Source: Candidatus Methanogaster sp.
Lineage (GTDB): Archaea > Halobacteriota > Methanosarcinia > Methanosarcinales > Methanogasteraceae
DNA length: 64,000 nt
Direction: 5' to 3'
Assembly (NCBI GenBank): GCA_013572355.1
Contig: QBUV01000091.1
Location: 950 to 64,949 of the forward strand
Shown: positions 4,930 to 54,382 of the stretch, piece by piece
Position numbering within the stretch: the stretch's first letter is position 1
Layout: each line of letters begins with the position of its first letter
Notes under the pieces: generated by a model
The model's database searches: none
Seen by the model: the letters and a program-made list of their open reading frames with translations, nothing else
What the model was told of the DNA's origin: nothing
Made by a program: the position numbers and the translations under genes

Positions 4930-6147
4930 ATGAATAAGAAGATAATATTACCGTTTGTCGCAATTCTTGTACTGGCTGTAGCTATGGTTGGCGCAGCGAG
5001 TGCGGATGAGGTGACAACGGTGGATACGGTTGAGGTCCGCGGCAATGTGGCAAACGCCACACAAGCAAATGCTGGTATCAACTGGACTGCACAGGATTTC
5101 GCTGCGTTCTGGTACGATCTTGATGACGATCTGTCAACAGAGACTCTTGAACTCATAGGTGGTACATCCGGTACTGATCGAAACATAGCTGATGACCAAC
5201 TGGTTTACACCACATATCCGGAGCATCAATTGTACGAGCTTTACGCTGACAAAGGGTTAGTCGTAGAGGGTGACGATACGAATCTATCAATCGGATACTA
5301 CATCGAAGGCTGGCTGGCAGAGGAGTACGTAGCAGTCAACGGCAGAGCAGATGAACTCGTGAAACTGTTGGTTGAGTTCGAGGGCGATGACAAGAAGACC
5401 CTGTCAACCGGTGAGGCATGGGATCTTGGAAACGGATTTGCCCTTATTGCTCAACAGATCGATCTCGAAGGTGACAAGGTGTGGTTCTCGCTGGAGAAGG
5501 ATGGCAAGGAATTGGATAGTGAAGTTGTCACAACCGGTGCCGATATTACGAATGAATCAGTGTACACCTACACCGAAGACATAGGCAGTGAAGATGACGT
5601 TCCAGTGTTTTCATGCCTTGTTGATGCTGTGTTCAGAGGAACGGACAGCAATATCGTGCAGGTTAGGTATGTCTTCCTAGTCGATAATGTGGTTTTGGAG
5701 ATCGATAGTGACGATAAGTTCGGTGCAATGGAAGCTACCGCAGGTCCGACCATGATCACACTTAGGAATGAGGATGCTATCGATCTAGGCAAAGACACCA
5801 CTGAGCACATCATGGGCAACATGTACTTCAAGACCGCGGATGATACTGCACTCAGGTTCTATCCGATGGTCGAGTACACCATCGGCGAGGGCGCAGCAGG
5901 CGAAGCTGAGGAAGAGGTCGAGACTCCAACCGATGCTAACGAGACTGCGGATGTGAACGTAACTCCGACCGCTGTAGTCACGCCAACGCCTGAAGAGGCA
6001 GCATCACCTGTAGTGACAGCAACAGCTGAAGATACCACAGCAGATGCTGAAGAGACCGCAACCCCGAAGACTCCAGGTTTTGAGGCAGTCTTCGCAATTG
6101 CCGGACTGCTCGCAGTCGCATATCTTGTGCTCAGACAGCGAGAGTGA
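4930..6147 (+). CDS. Surface (S-layer-type) protein with signal peptide, S-layer duplication-type domain, Thr/Glu/Ala-rich linker and PGF-CTERM anchor
   Basis: Signal peptide MNKKIILPFVAILVLAVAMVGAASA. The WTAQDFAAFWYDLDDDLSTETLEL region is typical of methanogen S-layer-related domains. C-terminus PGFEAVFAIAGLLAVAYLVLRQRE = PGF + TM + basic tail. Confidence 0.85.
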   Translation: MNKKIILPFVAILVLAVAMVGAASADEVTTVDTVEVRGNVANATQANAGINWTAQDFAAFWYDLDDDLSTETLELIGGTSGTDRNIADDQLVYTTYPEHQLYELYADKGLVVEGDDTNLSIGYYIEGWLAEEYVAVNGRADELVKLLVEFEGDDKKTLSTGEAWDLGNGFALIAQQIDLEGDKVWFSLEKDGKELDSEVVTTGADITNESVYTYTEDIGSEDDVPVFSCLVDAVFRGTDSNIVQVRYVFLVDNVVLEIDSDDKFGAMEATAGPTMITLRNEDAIDLGKDTTEHIMGNMYFKTADDTALRFYPMVEYTIGEGAAGEAEEEVETPTDANETADVNVTPTAVVTPTPEEAASPVVTATAEDTTADAEETATPKTPGFEAVFAIAGLLAVAYLVLRQRE

Positions 6148-6158
6148 GTGAGACCCTG

Positions 6159-6195
6159 TGAAGGGAGAGATCCTCCCTTCCGACTTTTCTTTTTT
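6159..6195 (+). terminator. Stem-loop plus oligo-T downstream of the surface-protein gene
   Basis: GAAGGGAG-agatc-CTCCCTTC (8-bp stem) followed by cgacTTTTcTTTTTTT, 12 nt after the stop codon. Confidence 0.5.
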
Positions 6196-6313
6196 TGAAA
6201 TACGTTCCAATAGGCTCTAACCGAGACTATACGCTCTTTCACATTCCAATCAAACTTCCGGTTTACGCAGTCAAGGGTTAGCAGCGATCAAAATCAGCAG
6301 AGTCAATCTGAGA

Positions 6314-7926: not shown

Positions 7927-7980
7927 GAAGAGATAATCTACTGATAAACCTTTAATACTTGCCTTGCAAGATTTAGCAGG

Positions 7981-9363
7981 ATGGAAGATAGCGACAATAG
8001 CAGAAATAAATACTCCGAAGGCGTAAAAACACTTCTCGGCGATCCTAAAAAAGCCATCCTAAAACTGTCGCTACCGATGATCGTAGCTATGTCAGCACAG
8101 ACGGTCTACAATCTCGTCGATGCTATCTGGGTATCAGGTCTCGGCGCTAATGCTCTCGCTGCGATCGGATTCGTCTTCCCGTTCTTCTTTGCAGCTATGG
8201 CGCTTTCCAACGGACTCGGGGTGGGCGGCGGGTCTGCCATATCCAGAAGGATCGGTGCAAGGGATAAGGATGGTGCGGACAACGTGGCGGTTCACACGAT
8301 TGTTATGATGCTCTTGCTTGCGGTTCTCTTCACGATCCCGCTCTTTGTCTTTGCCGAGGACGTGTTCGTCCTGATCGGTGCTGGCAGCGCAACAGGGATG
8401 GCTGTCTCGTATGCCAGGATCATCTTCGCAGGCAGCATCTTCATATTTATAACAAGCGTCGCAAGCGCTATACTGCGGGCGGAGGGTGATGTCAAGCGAG
8501 CCATGTATGTCATGATGCTGGGCGCAGGTCTCAATATTATACTGGATCCGATCTTCATCTACACTCTCGACATGGGCATCGCGGGTGCGGCATGGGCTAC
8601 ACTCGTATCGCTGGCAATCTCGTCTGTGGTTATGGTAAACTGGCTGCTTTTTAAGAAGGACACGTACGTATCATTCAAATTCAGCGGTTTCAGGTTCGAT
8701 AGGACGATTGTCAGGGACATCTTTAAGGTAGGTATTCCGGCTTCTGTAACGCAACTCTCGATGTCGCTTACAATGGTGATAATGAACGTCATGGTAGTAG
8801 CGGTGGGTAGCATCGCGGGGGTTGCGGTCTACACCACAGGATGGCGGGTGGTATCGATTGCGACACTGCCCTTAATCGGTATCGCAACAGCGGTCGTCTC
8901 GGTAACAGGGGCTGCTTTCGGTGCACGCGCATGTGATAAGGTGAGTATCGCGCACCTCTATGCAACAAAGATCGGTTTTGCGATAGAATTGGTGATAGCG
9001 GTGGCAACCTTCATCTTCGCCCCCCAGATAGCTGCTATGTTCACGCAGTCCGAGAGCGCAGCACATATCGCACCTGATCTAATCATCTTCTTAAGGATCG
9101 TGAGTCTCTTCTATGTGGGCGTGCCGTTTGGGATGCTATCCTCTTCGCTCTTTCAGGGGACCGGAAAGGGTATGAACGCGCTCTTTGTCACGATCTTGCG
9201 CACACTCATCCTAACTCCAATATTTGCAGCTCTCTTCGCGTTTAACTTTGATATGGGGCTTACCGGGATCTGGTGGGGTCTCGTTGCTGCAAACGTCATA
9301 GGTTCTACAGTAGCGTTTATCTGGGCGCGGCTGTATGTGCGAGGGCTTATAGGTAGGCGATGA
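7981..9363 (+). CDS. MATE family efflux transporter
   Basis: 460 aa, 12 predicted TM helices. N-terminus KAILKLSLPMIVAMSAQTVYNLVDAIWVSGLG is the typical MatE signature. Confidence 0.9.
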   Translation: MEDSDNSRNKYSEGVKTLLGDPKKAILKLSLPMIVAMSAQTVYNLVDAIWVSGLGANALAAIGFVFPFFFAAMALSNGLGVGGGSAISRRIGARDKDGADNVAVHTIVMMLLLAVLFTIPLFVFAEDVFVLIGAGSATGMAVSYARIIFAGSIFIFITSVASAILRAEGDVKRAMYVMMLGAGLNIILDPIFIYTLDMGIAGAAWATLVSLAISSVVMVNWLLFKKDTYVSFKFSGFRFDRTIVRDIFKVGIPASVTQLSMSLTMVIMNVMVVAVGSIAGVAVYTTGWRVVSIATLPLIGIATAVVSVTGAAFGARACDKVSIAHLYATKIGFAIELVIAVATFIFAPQIAAMFTQSESAAHIAPDLIIFLRIVSLFYVGVPFGMLSSSLFQGTGKGMNALFVTILRTLILTPIFAALFAFNFDMGLTGIWWGLVAANVIGSTVAFIWARLYVRGLIGRR

Positions 9364-16501: not shown

Positions 16502-17770
16502 ATGTTCACCATCATCACAGGCGCTCAGTTCGGCGACGAGGGCAAGGGAAAGATCGTCGATGTCCTGGGCAAGGATTATGATCTCGTTGTCAGGTTCCAG
16601 GGCGGAAATAACGCAGGGCACACCGTGATCGTCGGAGATGACACCTACAAACTCCACCTGATCCCGTCGGGCGTTCTCACCGATGCCCGGCTCCTGATAG
16701 GTCCAGGTGTGGTTGTCGATCCGATAGTACTTATTCAGGAGATCGAGATGCTCAGAAGTGCCGGCATCGAGATAACCCCTGAGAAACTCGGGATCGATGC
16801 GAAAACAAGCATCATCATGCCGTACCACATCGAGATGGACAAACTGCGCGAGCAGAGACGGACCAAGAAGATCGGGACGACCGCTCGCGGCATCGGATTT
16901 GCATATATCGACAAGATATCAAGGGACGAGGTGCGGCTGGCAGATCTCGCCAGCAGAGATGCTTTTCTTGCACTCATGGACGAACTTGCACCCCAGAAGG
17001 AGCGTGCGATCGTCGATCTCGGAGGCGATCCCGGTGTGGTGCGCGAAAGCATCCCTGATTATGCCGGATACGGCGCCACGCTTGAGCCGTACATCACCGA
17101 TGTCTCGCATGAGCTGAACCGTGCTCTTGATTCCGGCAGGGACGTGCTTGCAGAGGGTGCGCAGGGTGCGCATCTCGATATCATCCACGGCACCCAGAAG
17201 TACGTAACCTCCTCAAGCACTGTTGCAGGAAGCGCATGCATGTATCTCGGAGTCGGACCGACCCGGGTCGATCATGTGATCGGTATCGTCAAGGCGTACA
17301 TCACACGGGTCGGGGAGGGTCCGCTGCCGACCGAAGATCATGGCGAGATCGGGGAGGCGCTCCGGACCGCCGGGGCTGAGTTTGGCACCACCACCGGCAG
17401 ACCGCGGCGGTGCGGCTGGTTCGATGCTCCGCTTGCGAGAAAAAGCGTAGAACTCAATGCGTACACGAGCATAGCACTGACAAAACTGGACGTTCTCGAC
17501 GGGCTCGACCCGATCAGCATCTGCACCGGCTATGAGCTGGATGGCAAGCTGCTTGAGCATCCTCCGATACTTTCATCCGATCTTGCGCGATGTGTTCCAG
17601 TCTATGAGACTATGGACGGCTGGTGCGAGGATATCACTTCGGCGGATGCGTTTTCAGACCTGCCTGCCGCTGCGAAGGATTATGTGCACAGGATCGAGGA
17701 GATTCTCGGAGTTGGCATCGGGATCGTCTCGATCGGTCCGAAGCGGAGTCAGGTGCTCTTTGTGGAGTGA
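16502..17770 (+). CDS. purA: Adenylosuccinate synthetase
   Basis: GAQFGDEGKGKIVD P-loop, GGNNAGHT, TTGRPRRCGW motifs. 422 aa. Confidence 0.95.
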   Translation: MFTIITGAQFGDEGKGKIVDVLGKDYDLVVRFQGGNNAGHTVIVGDDTYKLHLIPSGVLTDARLLIGPGVVVDPIVLIQEIEMLRSAGIEITPEKLGIDAKTSIIMPYHIEMDKLREQRRTKKIGTTARGIGFAYIDKISRDEVRLADLASRDAFLALMDELAPQKERAIVDLGGDPGVVRESIPDYAGYGATLEPYITDVSHELNRALDSGRDVLAEGAQGAHLDIIHGTQKYVTSSSTVAGSACMYLGVGPTRVDHVIGIVKAYITRVGEGPLPTEDHGEIGEALRTAGAEFGTTTGRPRRCGWFDAPLARKSVELNAYTSIALTKLDVLDGLDPISICTGYELDGKLLEHPPILSSDLARCVPVYETMDGWCEDITSADAFSDLPAAAKDYVHRIEEILGVGIGIVSIGPKRSQVLFVE

Positions 17771-22371: not shown

Positions 22372-22747
22372 CCAAAAAGTTTATTAATGATTAATAATTA
22401 CTTACACTTGGCACGTATTGTGCTGTGCGGACAAAGGTGGAAAACGCCTCCTTTCACCTTTGCTGATAAGCATGGGATGACGGGTTCCTCCTCGTTTCCA
22501 TCCCGTCTGTGGGGGTGGGGTTATGCTTTCAGTTCAGCGAAGAGTCTCAGCAGCGCGATGGCAGGGAGTATCCCATATTGACCCGCCCTGCAGACGCCCA
22601 CACGGTGCAGTCACACCCCGCGCGCCAACCACGATGATAGTGGGGGGAGGTCACTGTGTACCAATGAATAATCGGATCTTTGGTATTCGCGTTGCGGTGA
22701 CCAAGACCCCGGAGACTTTTTGATATTTTCGAAACAAGGGTTTTTGG

Positions 22748-22852
22748 AAAACCACAGAGGTCACAGAGTGACACAGAGGGGTCTAAAGATAAAAATAACA
22801 ACTTTCTGTGATCCTCTGTGCTCTCTGTGGTTTAATCTCCCTTGCCCTAACC
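22748..22852 (+). repeat. Heptad-hairpin element, locus A (CACAGAG/CTCTGTG arms)
   Basis: AAAACCACAGAG-gt-CACAGAG-tga-CACAGAG, A-rich loop, tTCTGTG-atc-CTCTGTG-ct-CTCTGTGGTTT, tail AATCTCCCTTGCCCTAACC. The outer 11 bp are perfectly complementary. Confidence 0.8.
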
Positions 22853-22929
22853 GGATCCTTACGAAGTGAAAAAGTACATGCACTCGCGAATTATCAGAGA
22901 CACAGGATAATCTCGAGGACCCGGTTTAA

Positions 22930-24066: not shown

Positions 24067-24229
24067 ATTGTGGACTCTGGTTCGCTTATCGCCTCATAAA
24101 ACTATGTTTGAATGATTCCAGAAGGGCAAAAACAATTTCAGATACCAGAATAACCATTCGACCCTGCCGGCAAACCGTGAAAGGGGCAGCAAAATGGATT
24201 GAAACATCCGACCTTATGCAAAAGACTCC

Positions 24230-29401: not shown

Positions 29402-29410
29402 TCTATATGT

Positions 29411-29495
29411 GCGGGGGTTGCCCAGCCAGGTCAAAGGCGCTAGGTTGAGGGCCTAGTCTCGTAGGAGTCCGTGGGTTCGAATCCCACCCCCCGCA
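29411..29495 (+). tRNA. tRNA-Leu (anticodon GAG)
   Basis: GCGGGGGTTGCCCAGCCAGGTCAAAGGCGCTAGGTTGAGGGCCTAGTCTCGTAGGAGTCCGTGGGTTCGAATCCCACCCCCCGCA. Loop TT-GAG-GG, long variable arm. Confidence 0.95.
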
Positions 29496-29550
29496 TCACA
29501 TACCAACTACCAACTATTTTTGAGAGCATGCATACTCGATATACGGCACT

Positions 29551-29750
29551 CGGAAACACGCAACGCCGTCTATCCACTCCTCGCGCACGGGTTCTGTGCA
29601 CCGGTTGTATTGACCATACTGCCTGTTCGTTATTTCGTTGTCGCCTTTCGTGATATATCCGGCGTGCGGCGCAATCGGACCGCTATCCCACATCGGCTCA
29701 CCCGTACTTCCGGTACGGGATCACGTTACCATAGTCGCCAAACGTTTCGT
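29551..29750 (-). pseudogene. Partial, decayed duplicate of the adjacent signal peptidase I gene (internal fragment, frameshifted by a 53-nt deletion)
   Basis: 29551..29700 aligns to 29891..30040 and 29701..29748 to 30094..30141 of the intact gene. The 67-nt core 29615..29681 differs from 29955..30021 at a single position. Confidence 0.85.
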
Positions 29751-29817: not shown

Positions 29818-30405
29818 CTATGCGGATTTGCCAGTAAGTGTCTCGATCACCTTTGAGAACGCGAGGCGCACATATCCGGCATAAGGTATACGGAAACGCG
29901 CAACACCAATCACCCACTCCTCGCGTATGGGCACGGTGCAGAGGGTGTGTTGATCATACTGCCTGTTCGTTATTTCGTTGTCGCCTTTTGTGATATATCC
30001 GGCGTGCGGCGCAATCGGACCCCCCGCCCACATCGGCTCGCCTGCCTCAACATGGTACATTGCGCGGTGTATGATCGGAGTTACATCGGTTCGCCCGTAC
30101 TTCCGGTACAGGATCACGTTACCATAGTCGCCAAACGTTCTGTAGTCGCTGATCGCGCCTTCCTCTTGTGTAACGACACTGGTGCGTGATATGTCCTTAA
30201 TAAAGACGATATCCCCTTTCTTCATGTGCGGTTCCATGCTTCCGGACTCAATCGCCCGCATCGGCGCCCATGTCCCGAATATGAGCTGGGATAGGATCGC
30301 AAATATGAGGAGTATCTTTGCAACCGATATGAGGTCGCGCAAGACCCCTGCCAACGTGCTATCGCTCTGGTAAAATTCTTTTATTTGATCGAAACGTTCA
30401 GACAT
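29818..30405 (-). CDS. Signal peptidase I (archaeal/Sec11-type S26 family)
   Basis: N-terminal TM anchor, then AIESGSMEPHMKKGDIVFIKD (catalytic Ser in SGSMEP) and a conserved His region (PIIHRAMY). Start taken at MSERFDQ (30405); the listed ORF extends to 30447. Confidence 0.85.
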   Translation of the reverse strand: MSERFDQIKEFYQSDSTLAGVLRDLISVAKILLIFAILSQLIFGTWAPMRAIESGSMEPHMKKGDIVFIKDISRTSVVTQEEGAISDYRTFGDYGNVILYRKYGRTDVTPIIHRAMYHVEAGEPMWAGGPIAPHAGYITKGDNEITNRQYDQHTLCTVPIREEWVIGVARFRIPYAGYVRLAFSKVIETLTGKSA

Positions 30406-33426: not shown

Positions 33427-33575
33427 TTTTTTGATCACCTTATGTTTTACATGCAATTCGAGCGATTGGGTGATAATAGTTTCGGAGGTTTCGGCGAGAC
33501 GTTCTGATCCCGGTGGAAACACTCTGATTTTCAGATAGTGTCTCCAAAACGTACGTGTTCGAGTAACTTGTGGAT

Positions 33576-33668
33576 AAAATCAGTGGAATCCGTGCCCATA
33601 TATAGCTAAAAACCTTTATCAGCCACTGATTTACACAGATTACACAGACTCCGGGTTATCTGTTTGCC
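33576..33668 (+). repeat. Heptad-hairpin element, locus D (short form)
   Basis: AAATCAGTGG(33577-86)/CCACTGATTT(33623-32) 10-bp stem, then ACACAGA-tt-ACACAGA-ctccgggtt-ATCTGT. Tail GGTTATCTGTTTGCCAC resembles the locus B tail GGTTAATCTTCTTTGCCAT. Confidence 0.55.
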
Positions 33669-33713
33669 ACACGTTACTCGAGCCTATTCTCTGAATATCC
33701 GGATTCGCCCTAA

Positions 33714-40934: not shown

Positions 40935-41021
40935 CGGTACCAATCTCCTTACGATTGGATGATCGTGCAGATCGCTTAAAAATCTTTGCTGCGGAGGGGA
41001 CACTGTCTGAAAAATCAAGTG

Positions 41022-41138
41022 ATTTATCACCGCGGTCTGCGAAGCAAAGCCGTTGGCAGTACGCGGAGGACGCAGAGTTTCGAGACTGCGTAAGTCCTCT
41101 GCGTGGCTCTGCGCCCTCTGCGGTAAATATGCCAAACC
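41022..41138 (+). repeat. Heptad-hairpin element, locus C (CGCAGAG/CTCTGCG arms)
   Basis: ..CGCGGAG-ga-CGCAGAG-tttcgaga-CTGCGtaagtc-CTCTGCG-tgg-CTCTGCG-cc-CTCTGCGGTAAATATGCCAAACC. The right arm has the same 3-nt/2-nt heptad spacing as locus A. Confidence 0.7.
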
Positions 41139-41560
41139 GCATCTGTTTATTTAAACCCCGAGCTCACTTAAACACCAGACTAACAACACCAGACTAACTT
41201 GACAACCTCTGTGCCTGATTAATTTTTTATAGGGGGCGGGCGGATAGGGTTATACATAAGAGAGTTGAGCAGAGTTTCGGACACGATCCTTGCAAATCGA
41301 ACGTAACAACAGACTGGCGACCGTTTTCTTACTGGTTTACGAACACTTACGTACATTGGTATGCCGGGTATGCACGGCTGGCAGGAACGTGGAAAACGCG
41401 GGCTCAGACATCTCTTTGGCCAGGTGATCCGGATGAAAATGGAAATATTGCCGATCGGGACTTGCGCTTTAGTTCATGCGCTGATAAGGACGACTGCAAC
41501 ATGGTATGTGGACAACGACCGCGGAGCTGACTATGCGAGAGGATCGCGAGAGGTGGTATC

Positions 41561-43958: not shown

Positions 43959-44264
43959 GTTTCTTAGAATATCCTTCAGGTAGCAACTATGCGGACGGCT
44001 AATGGTTTCGTTGTTATGGGCATGTTGAAAACCTGCCACTCACCATTTCCATAATCAGATGCAGTCCCGGATATCGCAGCCCCGTGCGGTATATCCGTCT
44101 CTTCTCCGGTTGCGTCGTCCATGATGCTATTTCAGATTCCAGTACTGTACGGATACCTAATCTACTCATGCGGTATTAAATCCACCGAGGCCGATGGTGG
44201 CGCACAATCGTGGAGAAGGCGAGTCGGGACGGGGGCTTTTTATTATCTTCTGGAATGAGTTCAG

Positions 44265-44354
44265 AAAACCACAGAGAGCACAGAGGACACCGAGAAAAAA
44301 GCAACTCTCTGTGCACTTCCGCGCCCTCTGTGGTTAATCTTCTTTGCCATAACC
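44265..44354 (+). repeat. Heptad-hairpin element, locus B (CACAGAG/CTCTGTG arms)
   Basis: AAAACCACAGAG-ag-CACAGAG-ga-CACCGAG-aaaaaagcaa-CTCTCTGTG-cacttccgcgcc-CTCTGTGGTTAATCTTCTTTGCCATAACC. End sequences are nearly identical to locus A. Confidence 0.8.
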
Positions 44355-44453
44355 CATTCCACCCAGAAGAAATTGAAAAGCCACGGGATAGGCGCCATAA
44401 CTCCTTATATCGTTGCCGCCCAATACCAAAGACAAAAGGGTAACGGGCGAATC

Positions 44454-48547: not shown

Positions 48548-48832
48548 GTGTAATAGTCCGGATTCCAGTCGGTCAGGAATTTACGTATCATCCCCCAACT
48601 TGGACCCGGTTTACTCTTTTGAGGGGCGGCATATAAGGGTTTTGAGACTGCGGGTTTTGTATAATCGGGGCAATGTTTGAAAATCCGAGTGTTTTCCGCC
48701 GATTTACTCGATTCGCGGCATTCGTGACTGCGAGCACAAGCGAAGCAGCGCCGAAGGCATAAAACCCAACCATGTCTGAGCCCCGGGGTCATTTAATACC
48801 CCTGGCAACTTGACCCCCGCGGCACCAAATAC

Positions 48833-54077: not shown

Positions 54078-54150
54078 AGCCCCGTAGGGTAGCGGTCAAG
54101 CCTGCAGGTCCTTGGAACCTGCGACGGCGGTTCAAATCCGCCCGGGGCTA
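54078..54150 (+). tRNA. tRNA-Gln (anticodon UUG) with an atypical anticodon loop
   Basis: AGCCCCGTAGGGTAGCGGTCAAGCCTGCAGGTCCTTGGAACCTGCGACGGCGGTTCAAATCCGCCCGGGGCTA. A1:U72 pair typical of archaeal tRNA-Gln. Anticodon stem CAGGT/ACCTG. Loop CC-TTG-GA, i.e. C where U33 is expected. Confidence 0.8.
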
Positions 54151-54187
54151 TCCACAGGAGAGTGCCACATTGCGTGGTGTCGAATCA

Positions 54188-54279
54188 ATCACGAATGGGC
54201 ACGAATAAACGAATGTCACGAATCGACACTGATAAATTCGTGTTATTCGTCCAAACGTGTGCATTCGTGATAAAAACGG
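54188..54279 (+). repeat. Heptad-hairpin element, locus E (CACGAAT/ATTCGTG arms)
   Basis: ATCACGAAT-ggg-CACGAAT-aa-ACGAAT-gt-CACGAAT-cgacactgataa-ATTCGTG-tt-ATTCGT-ccaaacgtgtgc-ATTCGTGATAAAAACGG. The outer 9 bp are perfect. Confidence 0.7.
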
Positions 54280-54286
54280 TCATGTA

Positions 54287-54299
54287 AAATATTTAAAAC
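54287..54299 (+). promoter_or_regulatory. TATA-box-like element upstream of mch
   Basis: AAAATATTTAAAA lies about 85-95 nt upstream of ATG 54383. Confidence 0.3.
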
Positions 54300-54382
54300 C
54301 GTAGTAACACCAGATGACGTGACACCTCATCCAAGCGATATGATTATATGATTGTACTGTATAATATCGCGGAGTGACTGAT

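Follow-up and report, generated by a model that had tools for sequence, protein, structure and literature searches.

What is the hairpin at 22748-22852 in this 64,000-nucleotide stretch of Candidatus Methanogaster sp. (assembly GCA_013572355.1, contig QBUV01000091.1; hereafter the window), and why do hairpins of the same design recur elsewhere in the window, which comes from a methane-oxidising ANME-2c archaeon? The arms consist of tandem seven-nucleotide units (heptads), and an interpretation made from the letters alone (the sequence-only reading) took the locus for the defining copy of a dispersed family that is maintained by selection on pairing, or by copying of one arm from the other, with a structured small RNA (sRNA) or a terminator among its possible roles. 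[quoted passage not shown]

The hairpin at locus A has the three-heptad paired arms that were first described, with CACAGAG starting at 22753, 22762 and 22772, (T/C)TCTGTG starting at 22805, 22814 and 22823, and AAACCACAGAG/CTCTGTGGTTT as the outer stem (Table 1). Its predicted RNA fold has an energy of -45.6 kcal/mol (z = -5.2), a value equalled by none of 200 shuffled sequences, and the opposite strand is nearly as stable (-42.9 kcal/mol, z = -3.9). Three other loci in the window share this design, so that the idea of a dispersed family whose heptad differs from locus to locus holds. Locus B (44265-44354; fold z = -4.6) is indeed a second copy with the ends and tail of A; locus C has a CGCAGAG/CTCTGCG hairpin, which lies at 41060-41125 and not at 41022 as first placed; and locus E, with CACGAAT/ATTCGTG at 54188-54271, is the longest inverted repeat of the window. 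The arms match in A, B, C and E, but the statement that they do so in every case fails because the heptads of the degenerate locus D, which is the same in relatives L121 and L122, are unpaired. A scan for at least two identical heptads followed within 160 nt by at least two reverse complements recovers A, B and E as exact 7-mer matches and finds 0 loci in 30 Markov shuffles; the pattern is therefore not a product of chance.

The gene contexts of these loci differ. Locus A lies between convergent genes, as had been noted, while the genes on either side of B and of C diverge and E is just 3' of tRNA-Gln. The elements that contain the hairpins, defined below, are 149-230 bp long and have no coding capacity; the open reading frames (ORFs) within them are spurious and merely run through the repeats, and no transposase gene stands beside them, both as the sequence-only reading had found.

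The evidence for this comes from relatives in which the same intergenic region is filled or empty. Contigs that share an identical ribosomal protein L6 were taken as close strains, and relatives at 92-94% identity were obtained by a metagenome scan with the TGT protein. In L121 (99.3% identical) only 27 bp stand in place of window 22636-22900, and element A is absent. L123 (97% identical) has no A at the window position; its A-type copy, 92.7% identical over the hairpin, is found beyond the aminotransferase gene. Here L123 (2074-2632) has a 559-bp composite A-type insertion (567 bp with one copy of the 8-bp duplication) that begins GGGTCGCTGGTAAC and ends ATTACCAGAGAGCC, holds a nested CACGAAT-type hairpin and is flanked on both sides by a perfect AAAACAAT, the 8-bp sequence that is single in the window. 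Element E is likewise missing in L142 and L143, where the empty site reads GGGGCTATCCAAGCG, and element C is precisely absent in L151. At the site of B, L151 has an unrelated 50 nt and L143 (1098-3010) a gene-bearing segment of 1.9 kb. Thus A, B, C and E are each missing in some relative, and the target duplications, which the sequence-only reading had not seen, show up when filled and empty sites are compared. Among strains at least 99% identical, B, C, D and E are all unchanged.

Table 1. Positions in the window of the hairpins, the elements that contain them, and their ends and target sites.
Feature	Position	Strand	Remarks
Heptad hairpin A	22749..22833	.	three CACAGAG, 26-nt A-rich loop, three CTCTGTG; 11-bp outer stem
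One-sided tail AATCTCCCTTGCCCTAACC	22834..22852	+	A/B-type copies retain it next to their hairpin
Element A (about 230 bp), A-type	22674..22903	.	holds the defining hairpin; ends from alignment to A-type copies in other Methanosarcinales
Left terminal inverted repeat of A, GGATCTTTGGTATTCGCGTTGC	22674..22695	.	agrees with the reverse-complemented right end and with GGGTCTTTGGTATTCGCGTTGC, the consensus of the family (L119, L023)
Right terminal inverted repeat of A, ...GCACTCGCGAATTATCAGAGACAC	22880..22903	.	in reverse complement, GTGTCTCTGATAATTCGCG, it can be aligned with GGCTCTCTGGTAATTCGCG, the terminal sequence of A-type copies in L023, L061 and L123
Left copy of putative 8-bp target duplication of A, GAATAATC	22666..22673	.	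single in the L121 allele (AAAGAATAATCCTGAG)
Right copy of putative target duplication of A, GGATAATC	22905..22912	.	
Empty target site AAAACAAT	24129..24136	.	single in the window and L121; filled in L123
Locus D, degenerate relative	33559..33681	.	outer 15-bp inverted repeat, 10-bp inner stem, two unpaired CACAGAT heptads
Element C (214 bp), C-type ends	40991..41204	.	hairpin 41060-41125; precisely absent in L151
Element B (149 bp)	44235..44383	.	hairpin 44265-44335, tail 44336-44354
Lone ATTCGCG/ATTCGTG arm	48711..48729	.	remnant of a CACGAAT-type element
Element E (174 bp)	54155..54328	.	CACGAAT/ATTCGTG hairpin 54188-54271; absent in L142 and L143
Left ATCCA, perfect 5-bp target-site duplication of E	54150..54154	.	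overlaps the last base of tRNA-Gln
Right ATCCA, 5-bp target-site duplication of E	54329..54333	.	

The relatives also contain insertions of their own. L143 has a C-type insertion (6137-6302) bounded by GGGCACTGTC/AGGCAATGTC, with GTTTTTC duplicated (7 bp); a C-type copy with the same inverted repeat at another site (7934-8146); and an insertion at 16545-16728 with a 24-bp inverted repeat (17/24 matches) and an 8-9-bp duplication, (C)GTAATATC. At the site of the lone arm at window 48711-48729, L143 shows two extra heptads and a full C-type element. Further insertions that the window does not have occur at L143 5480-5928, L144 2805-2970 and L154 458-646, and nearly all of the insertions new in relatives carry heptad arrays. 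When the indels of at least 100 bp in the compared regions are counted in both directions, about 11 of 12 carry heptad arrays, the exception being the 1.9-kb segment of L143. The heptad elements therefore account for most of the structural differences among related genomes in these regions. The exceptional segment was considered as a carrier of the transposase and rejected, as its product is a 331-aa zinc-ribbon/transmembrane protein. The divergent-promoter spacer that holds B is a hot spot for replacement (the L143 segment, the L151 filler).

Runs of N stand exactly at the site of element A in three further, independent metagenome assemblies (L122, 3592-3691; L124; L125), and in L122 55 bp of flank are repeated there; short-read assembly seems to fail at these hairpin elements. 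At the right end of element C (window 41172-41198) a 13-mer, ACACCAGACTAAC, is tandemly duplicated in direct orientation, and a similar AACACCAGA occurs near the right end of E (54308-54316).

The ends of the elements fall into several types. A-type elements have 22-bp inverted ends, GGGTCTTTGGTATTCGCG / GGCTCTCTGGTAATTCGCG; element B has an outer 20-bp inverted repeat (44234-44253 / 44363-44382); a further inverted-repeat pair is GAACATGCTCAATAAGTTGTGGTC/GTACTTGCTCGATACTATGTGGTC; and the inverted repeat of E is imperfect and only about 10 bp long. A- and B-type copies are found beside unrelated genes in other Methanosarcinales (Ethanoperedens, other ANME-2 and other metagenome-assembled genomes), including six B-type copies with non-orthologous flanks, and they share the outer arms GAGACTTTTT(A/G)(T/A)TAT...CCAGAAGAAATTAAAAAG, the loop and the tail. 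The hairpin-plus-tail module recurs more loosely in ANME-2c elements with quite different ends, the tail being recognisable in L143 5480-5928, L143 16545-16728, element C of the window and L026. The elements also nest: in L002 a CACAGAT-type unit is inserted in the loop of an A-type copy. Other DNA, a second palindrome or heptad hairpin included, sits within the loop of a heptad hairpin at L163 3000-3200 and at L002 ~1087 (minus strand); such loops seem to be favoured, or else tolerated, as targets of insertion.

These observations establish that the ANME-2c elements enter intergenic DNA as complete units, have imperfect terminal inverted repeats, are flanked by duplications of 5-9 bp and nest within one another. 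Because they combine unit insertion, terminal inverted repeats, 5-9-bp duplications, nesting and differences between strains, they can be described as MITE-like. The sequence-only reading had itself named, as an outcome that would refute it, copies that turn out to be fragments of a known MITE or insertion sequence (IS) with terminal inverted repeats and target duplications. Apart from the word 'known' this is what we find: the inverted repeats and duplications are there, while the inverted-repeat families match no named IS or MITE.

The hairpin core extends far beyond these archaea. A scan of one genome per species (596 Gb) with the pattern AAACCACAGAG-N40-70-CTCTGTGGTT, which contains 21 fixed bases, returned at least 120 matches against about 8 expected by chance. 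About one fifth of the matches listed are Methanosarcinales and the rest are bacteria of roughly 15 phyla, with isolates of Sorangium, Azospirillum, Methylobacter, Endozoicomonas, Bowmanella, Ktedonospora, Mucilaginibacter and Prevotella among them; nearly all matches listed contain additional internal heptads beyond the pattern. In 8-kb windows around the matches we found 24 further hairpins with other units, a few of them unrelated, while most fit CRCRRRK within (A/C)ACC...GGT(T/G) ends (CGCAGAG, CACGGAT, CGCGGAT, CACGAAA, CACCAAG, CGCAAAG). The hairpins are intergenic, with ordinary neighbouring genes that are unrelated to each other. Divergent spacers are under-represented, with 12 hairpins, against 28 in convergent, 28 in ++ and 20 in -- spacers. 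In L005, L026 and L114 they reach a density like that of repetitive extragenic palindromic (REP) sequences, with a hairpin in nearly every spacer or hairpins in tandem. An association with viruses was discarded in view of their near-absence from viral contigs (2 matches in 2.9 million).

Individual bacterial copies show how the arrays change. In one Planctomycetota genome a 240-bp unit is shared, and its sister copies differ in heptad number, with 2-3 on the left and 3-4 on the right. Two gut species, Bacteroides finegoldii (L160 5998-6070) and B. ovatus (L161), have a CACAGAG hairpin at the orthologous gmd-fcl spacer, but the entire hairpin is turned round in one relative to the other, which is direct evidence of recombination between the arms; templated copying of one arm from the other, as suggested earlier, may also operate, and the flip fits it. 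In L072, L019, L077 and L092 (Nitrospirota, Micavibrio and others) inverted arrays are built from tandem units unrelated to CRCRRRK, such as AGTGATTT, AGTGAAT, TGGAGTA, AGTAGGC and ATTTTGA, and this kind of architecture may extend beyond the CACAGAG family. In L086, a contig binned as Ruminiclostridium sp. MnB_11 that is probably mis-binned, hairpin and flanks are nearly identical to the Methanosarcinales/Methanoperedens-type copy L025.

Could the hairpin be conserved for the structure of an RNA, as an sRNA gene, a stabiliser of 3' ends, or a termination or processing signal? Its strong predicted folds (z from -4 to -5) would suit such a role, as would the many bacterial copies that fill short operon spacers or sit at gene 3' ends and the TATA-like or T5 runs that flank the hairpin left and right in A/B-type elements. 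However, an alignment of 11 A/B sequences has no compensatory change in 22 consensus pairs and an unfavourable covariation term (+0.98), so that the covariation once put forward as a sign of selection on pairing is not seen within this family. Among 137 CACAGAG hairpins from diverse genomes, pairing of an arm with its own partner gives -19.2 kcal/mol, compared with -15.4 kcal/mol for the partner of another hairpin, and only 19 of 95 variant heptads have their exact complement in the other arm. Hairpin orientation has no link to gene direction (17 co-oriented, 28 anti-oriented), and in co-directional contexts the sense strand is more stable in 21 cases and the antisense strand in 30 (p = 0.81). 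A search of the whole window and 18 hairpin-bearing loci against Rfam 15 gave no gathering-score hit to the elements, with tRNAs as the only hits; at E<=10 locus A gave only sub-threshold hairpins resembling microRNA precursors. Termination in archaea depends on oligo-T, and an intrinsic terminator was rejected because GGTT-N-A, and not a U-run, follows the stem and because the hairpins are oriented independently of the genes. With no covariation, mostly uncompensated variant heptads, no strand bias and copies that near-identical strains can dispense with, a structured RNA is disfavoured: conservation for RNA structure is very unlikely, and the elements are not sRNAs or terminators. The data fit copies that decay from master elements. 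It is still less probable that the arrays are operator-like double-stranded sites for a host regulator or nucleoid protein, set head-to-head 8-10 bp apart. The conserved heptads with freely varying spacers of 1-3 nt, the period of ~9 bp (about one helical turn) and the constant polarity, with the CRC end distal to the loop, are as expected of binding sites, but a single genome holds several heptads (CACAGAG, CGCAGAG, CACGAAT, CACAGAT), the copies have no common neighbouring gene or function and are gained and lost freely among strains, and their presence in ~15 phyla would require one universal binder. To our knowledge no such binder of the motif has been described.

Origin of each hairpin at its own site, through slippage and snap-back or template-switch synthesis and with no transposition, has the lowest probability of all. 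It would account for unit numbers that differ between sister copies, for the flipped Bacteroides hairpin and for the unrelated units (AGTGATTT, TGGAGTA, AGTAGGC) that form inverted tandem arrays in the same genomes; nevertheless, loops, tails and ~100 bp of the element sequence beside them recur from site to site, the insertions are bounded by defined ends and show target duplications, and heptads stay within the CRCRRRK consensus across phyla. As an origin of copies it is largely refuted, and as a mechanism of maintenance within copies it is plausible. Greater weight falls on two proposals that make the hairpin itself the mobile entity. One of them, the main rival, which we regard as unlikely, resembles the REP/REPIN systems: the unit would be the hairpin plus a short 3' tail, which an HUH/Y1-type or other hairpin-specific enzyme would recognise in single-stranded form and insert with no target duplication, often into palindrome loops, the MITE shells of ANME-2c being secondary carriers that acquired it or that it invaded. 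It explains why ANME-2c elements with unrelated ends share the hairpin-plus-tail module, why E-type hairpins of the window and L123 share the hairpin and not the flanks, why the two Blastocatellia copies have no more than the hairpin in common, and why hairpin loops contain nested insertions (L002, L163); the REP-like density in L005, L026 and L114 and the depletion between divergent genes (12, against 28 convergent) also agree with it. In addition, 139 hairpins lack a duplication at their ends, yet have A at +2 after GGTT in 68% and a pyrimidine-rich downstream flank. Against it, all ANME-2c polymorphisms that can be resolved moved the entire element with its duplication and none moved the hairpin alone; the heads are AACC/CACC and not the GTAG/CGTC given for the known REP superfamilies in PMC3733652; and no Y1 or RAYT gene lies near the copies among the families listed. 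The other proposal is broader and, although doubtful, somewhat easier to entertain: the heptad hairpins would make up a pan-prokaryotic class of selfish DNA in its own right, with AACC...GGTT ends, 2-4 CRCRRRK units per arm spaced at 8-10 nt and a pyrimidine-rich 3' flank, which propagates itself through a hairpin-recognising enzyme or a templated mechanism, has crossed at least ~15 bacterial phyla and the Methanosarcinales, and hitch-hikes in or invades the ANME MITEs. If so, it would be a new kind of mobile element and not the interior of a MITE.

The MITE-like interpretation, for its part, has to contend with several observations. The putative duplication of element A is less clean than those of E and of the L123 insertion, with GAATAATC and GGATAATC agreeing in 7 of 8 positions and the flank diverged; C shows no duplication when compared with the L151 empty site, AAATCTTTGCT|ACCTC; and B was replaced and not cleanly excised. 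Elsewhere one L143 insertion is flanked by a 15-bp direct repeat, and those in L144 and L154 have no duplication, which makes the range of duplication lengths wide for DDE transposition. A single hairpin-plus-tail module within several MITE families of unrelated ends is not foreseen by ordinary MITE biology, and no autonomous IS with matching ends was found in the window or in the loci examined, which include ~150 kb of ANME-2 relatives. In bacteria none of the 139 hairpins has a target duplication at its ends, two copies in one Blastocatellia genome have the hairpin alone in common, and the spread of the core over two domains conflicts with the report that prokaryotic MITEs are taxon-specific (PMC11602168).

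Other searches around the copies were negative as well. End motifs, and heptad arrays split to flank an ORF, were sought in the window and the loci examined, and only adjacent separate hairpins were found. Pfam searches gave no transposase among the 25 families listed for 76 ORFs from the archaeal loci, and neither a transposase or integrase nor Y1_Tnp among the 25 commonest of 217 families represented in the 8-kb windows around the matches (148 neighbouring proteins). All-against-all BLAST together with Pfam on the neighbours revealed no conserved neighbour gene.

If the elements are MITE-like, they would be mobilised in trans by DDE-type transposases encoded elsewhere, probably by several, because there are at least four types of end sequence with differing duplication lengths. 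The heptad arrays would not be kept copy by copy by selection on pairing; individual copies would decay from master copies, in which the arms stay complementary and a heptad variant (CACAGAG, CGCAGAG, CACGAAT) can spread through both arms. Slippage during replication may homogenise the arms, a sign of which would be the unit number that varies between sister copies, and so may arm-to-arm recombination or template switching, for which the Bacteroides flip would be the sign. For the element itself, the heptads could be a binding array for the transposase or a host factor, or could help to bring the ends together. Effects on the host would be side effects: the hairpin and its flanking T5 runs probably block read-through, and for this reason the host would tolerate copies behind tRNAs, within spacers and where genes end (3').

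It is instructive to compare these elements with known systems. The Foldback (FB) transposons of Drosophila have inverted arms of short tandem subrepeats in variable number and make target duplications; being eukaryotic and kilobase-scale, with different repeat units, they offer an architectural analogy alone, and no homology is implied. The BrickBuilt MITEs of Porphyromonas gingivalis, confined to one species, contain an internal minisatellite of ~22-23 nt direct repeats and thus share a tandem-array interior with the heptad elements, but their arrays are direct and not inverted. The prokaryotic MITEs (Correia of Neisseria, SM1-SM4 of Sulfolobus; census in PMC11602168) are alike in size, absence of coding, intergenic position, terminal inverted repeats, target duplications, presence or absence between strains, nesting and long foldback potential; unlike them, the ANME-2c elements have no parent IS in the window and loci examined, and several of their end types share a hairpin-plus-tail module of tandem heptads that is conserved across bacterial phyla and Methanosarcinales. 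With the REP/REPIN sequences (RAYT/Y1) the bacterial heptad hairpins have in common that they are intergenic, lack end duplications, are enriched at gene 3' ends, reach high local density with tandem clusters in some genomes and have no linked gene. REP/REPIN units, as characterised in PMC3733652, are palindromes of 20-40 nt with a GTAG/CGTC head, whereas the heptad hairpins are 60-90 nt long, with AAACC/CACC heads and 2-4 tandem heptads per arm, and those of ANME-2c travel within larger elements that have terminal inverted repeats and duplications. The heptamers of cyanobacterial short tandemly repeated repetitive (STRR) sequences and TAACTGA of Beggiatoaceae (PMC4679880) are likewise abundant, intergenic and shared by distant lineages; they are contiguous direct repeats, with neither spacers nor an inverted partner array.

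Several other candidates were set aside: integron attC sites, whose RYYYAAC ends are not present and which would not be single copies dispersed among housekeeping genes; CRISPR arrays, in which direct repeats of 24-48 nt alternate with unique spacers of like length, since here 7-nt units only 1-3 nt apart form inverted arrays; casposons, of which the one 15-bp flanking repeat in L143 is reminiscent, but there is no Cas1 and the other duplications differ in length; and a coding periodicity of 9 nt, as spacing varies from 8 to 10. The intrastrand-triplex motif of PMC4666352 is a different, G/C-rich one. Resemblances to the recombination signal heptamer CACAGTG, the Type III restriction sites CAGAG/CGAAT, the tRNA T-loop (GGTTC) and the U6 ACAGAGA box were dropped as coincidental or untestable. 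The motif strings and end sequences retrieved nothing relevant from the open-access literature, and RepRanger (PMC12306157) contains no matching element; together with the Rfam result this agrees with the sequence-only reading, which did not recognise the repeat as a described archaeal class.

The class (MITE or foldback) is a known one, and what is unusual is the architecture and the distribution, found neither in Rfam 15 nor in the open-access literature searched. For ANME-2c genomics the elements represent, within the compared regions, the main structural variation between related genomes; they appear to break assemblies, create spurious ORFs and insert beside tRNAs and into promoter regions, and therefore matter for annotation, strain typing and possibly gene expression. 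A heptad hairpin interior conserved across two domains is absent from current descriptions of prokaryotic MITEs. Either one widespread transposase family needs the hairpin, or the hairpin itself is mobile or self-renewing, and a protein that recognises CRCRRRK arrays could be a new hairpin-directed DNA enzyme.

Two minor features of the window deserve mention. Between a PUA-domain gene and element A lies a spacer of ~260 bp (22372-22635) that is identical across close strains; it contains no convincing ORF and has no Rfam hit at E<=10, and it could be a long 3' untranslated region or an undescribed RNA. Beside tRNA-Leu (29410-29497), the stretches 29551-29699 and 29891-30039 cross-match at 85-88% in the strain comparison, a similarity that points to an internal repeat of two 150-bp stretches.

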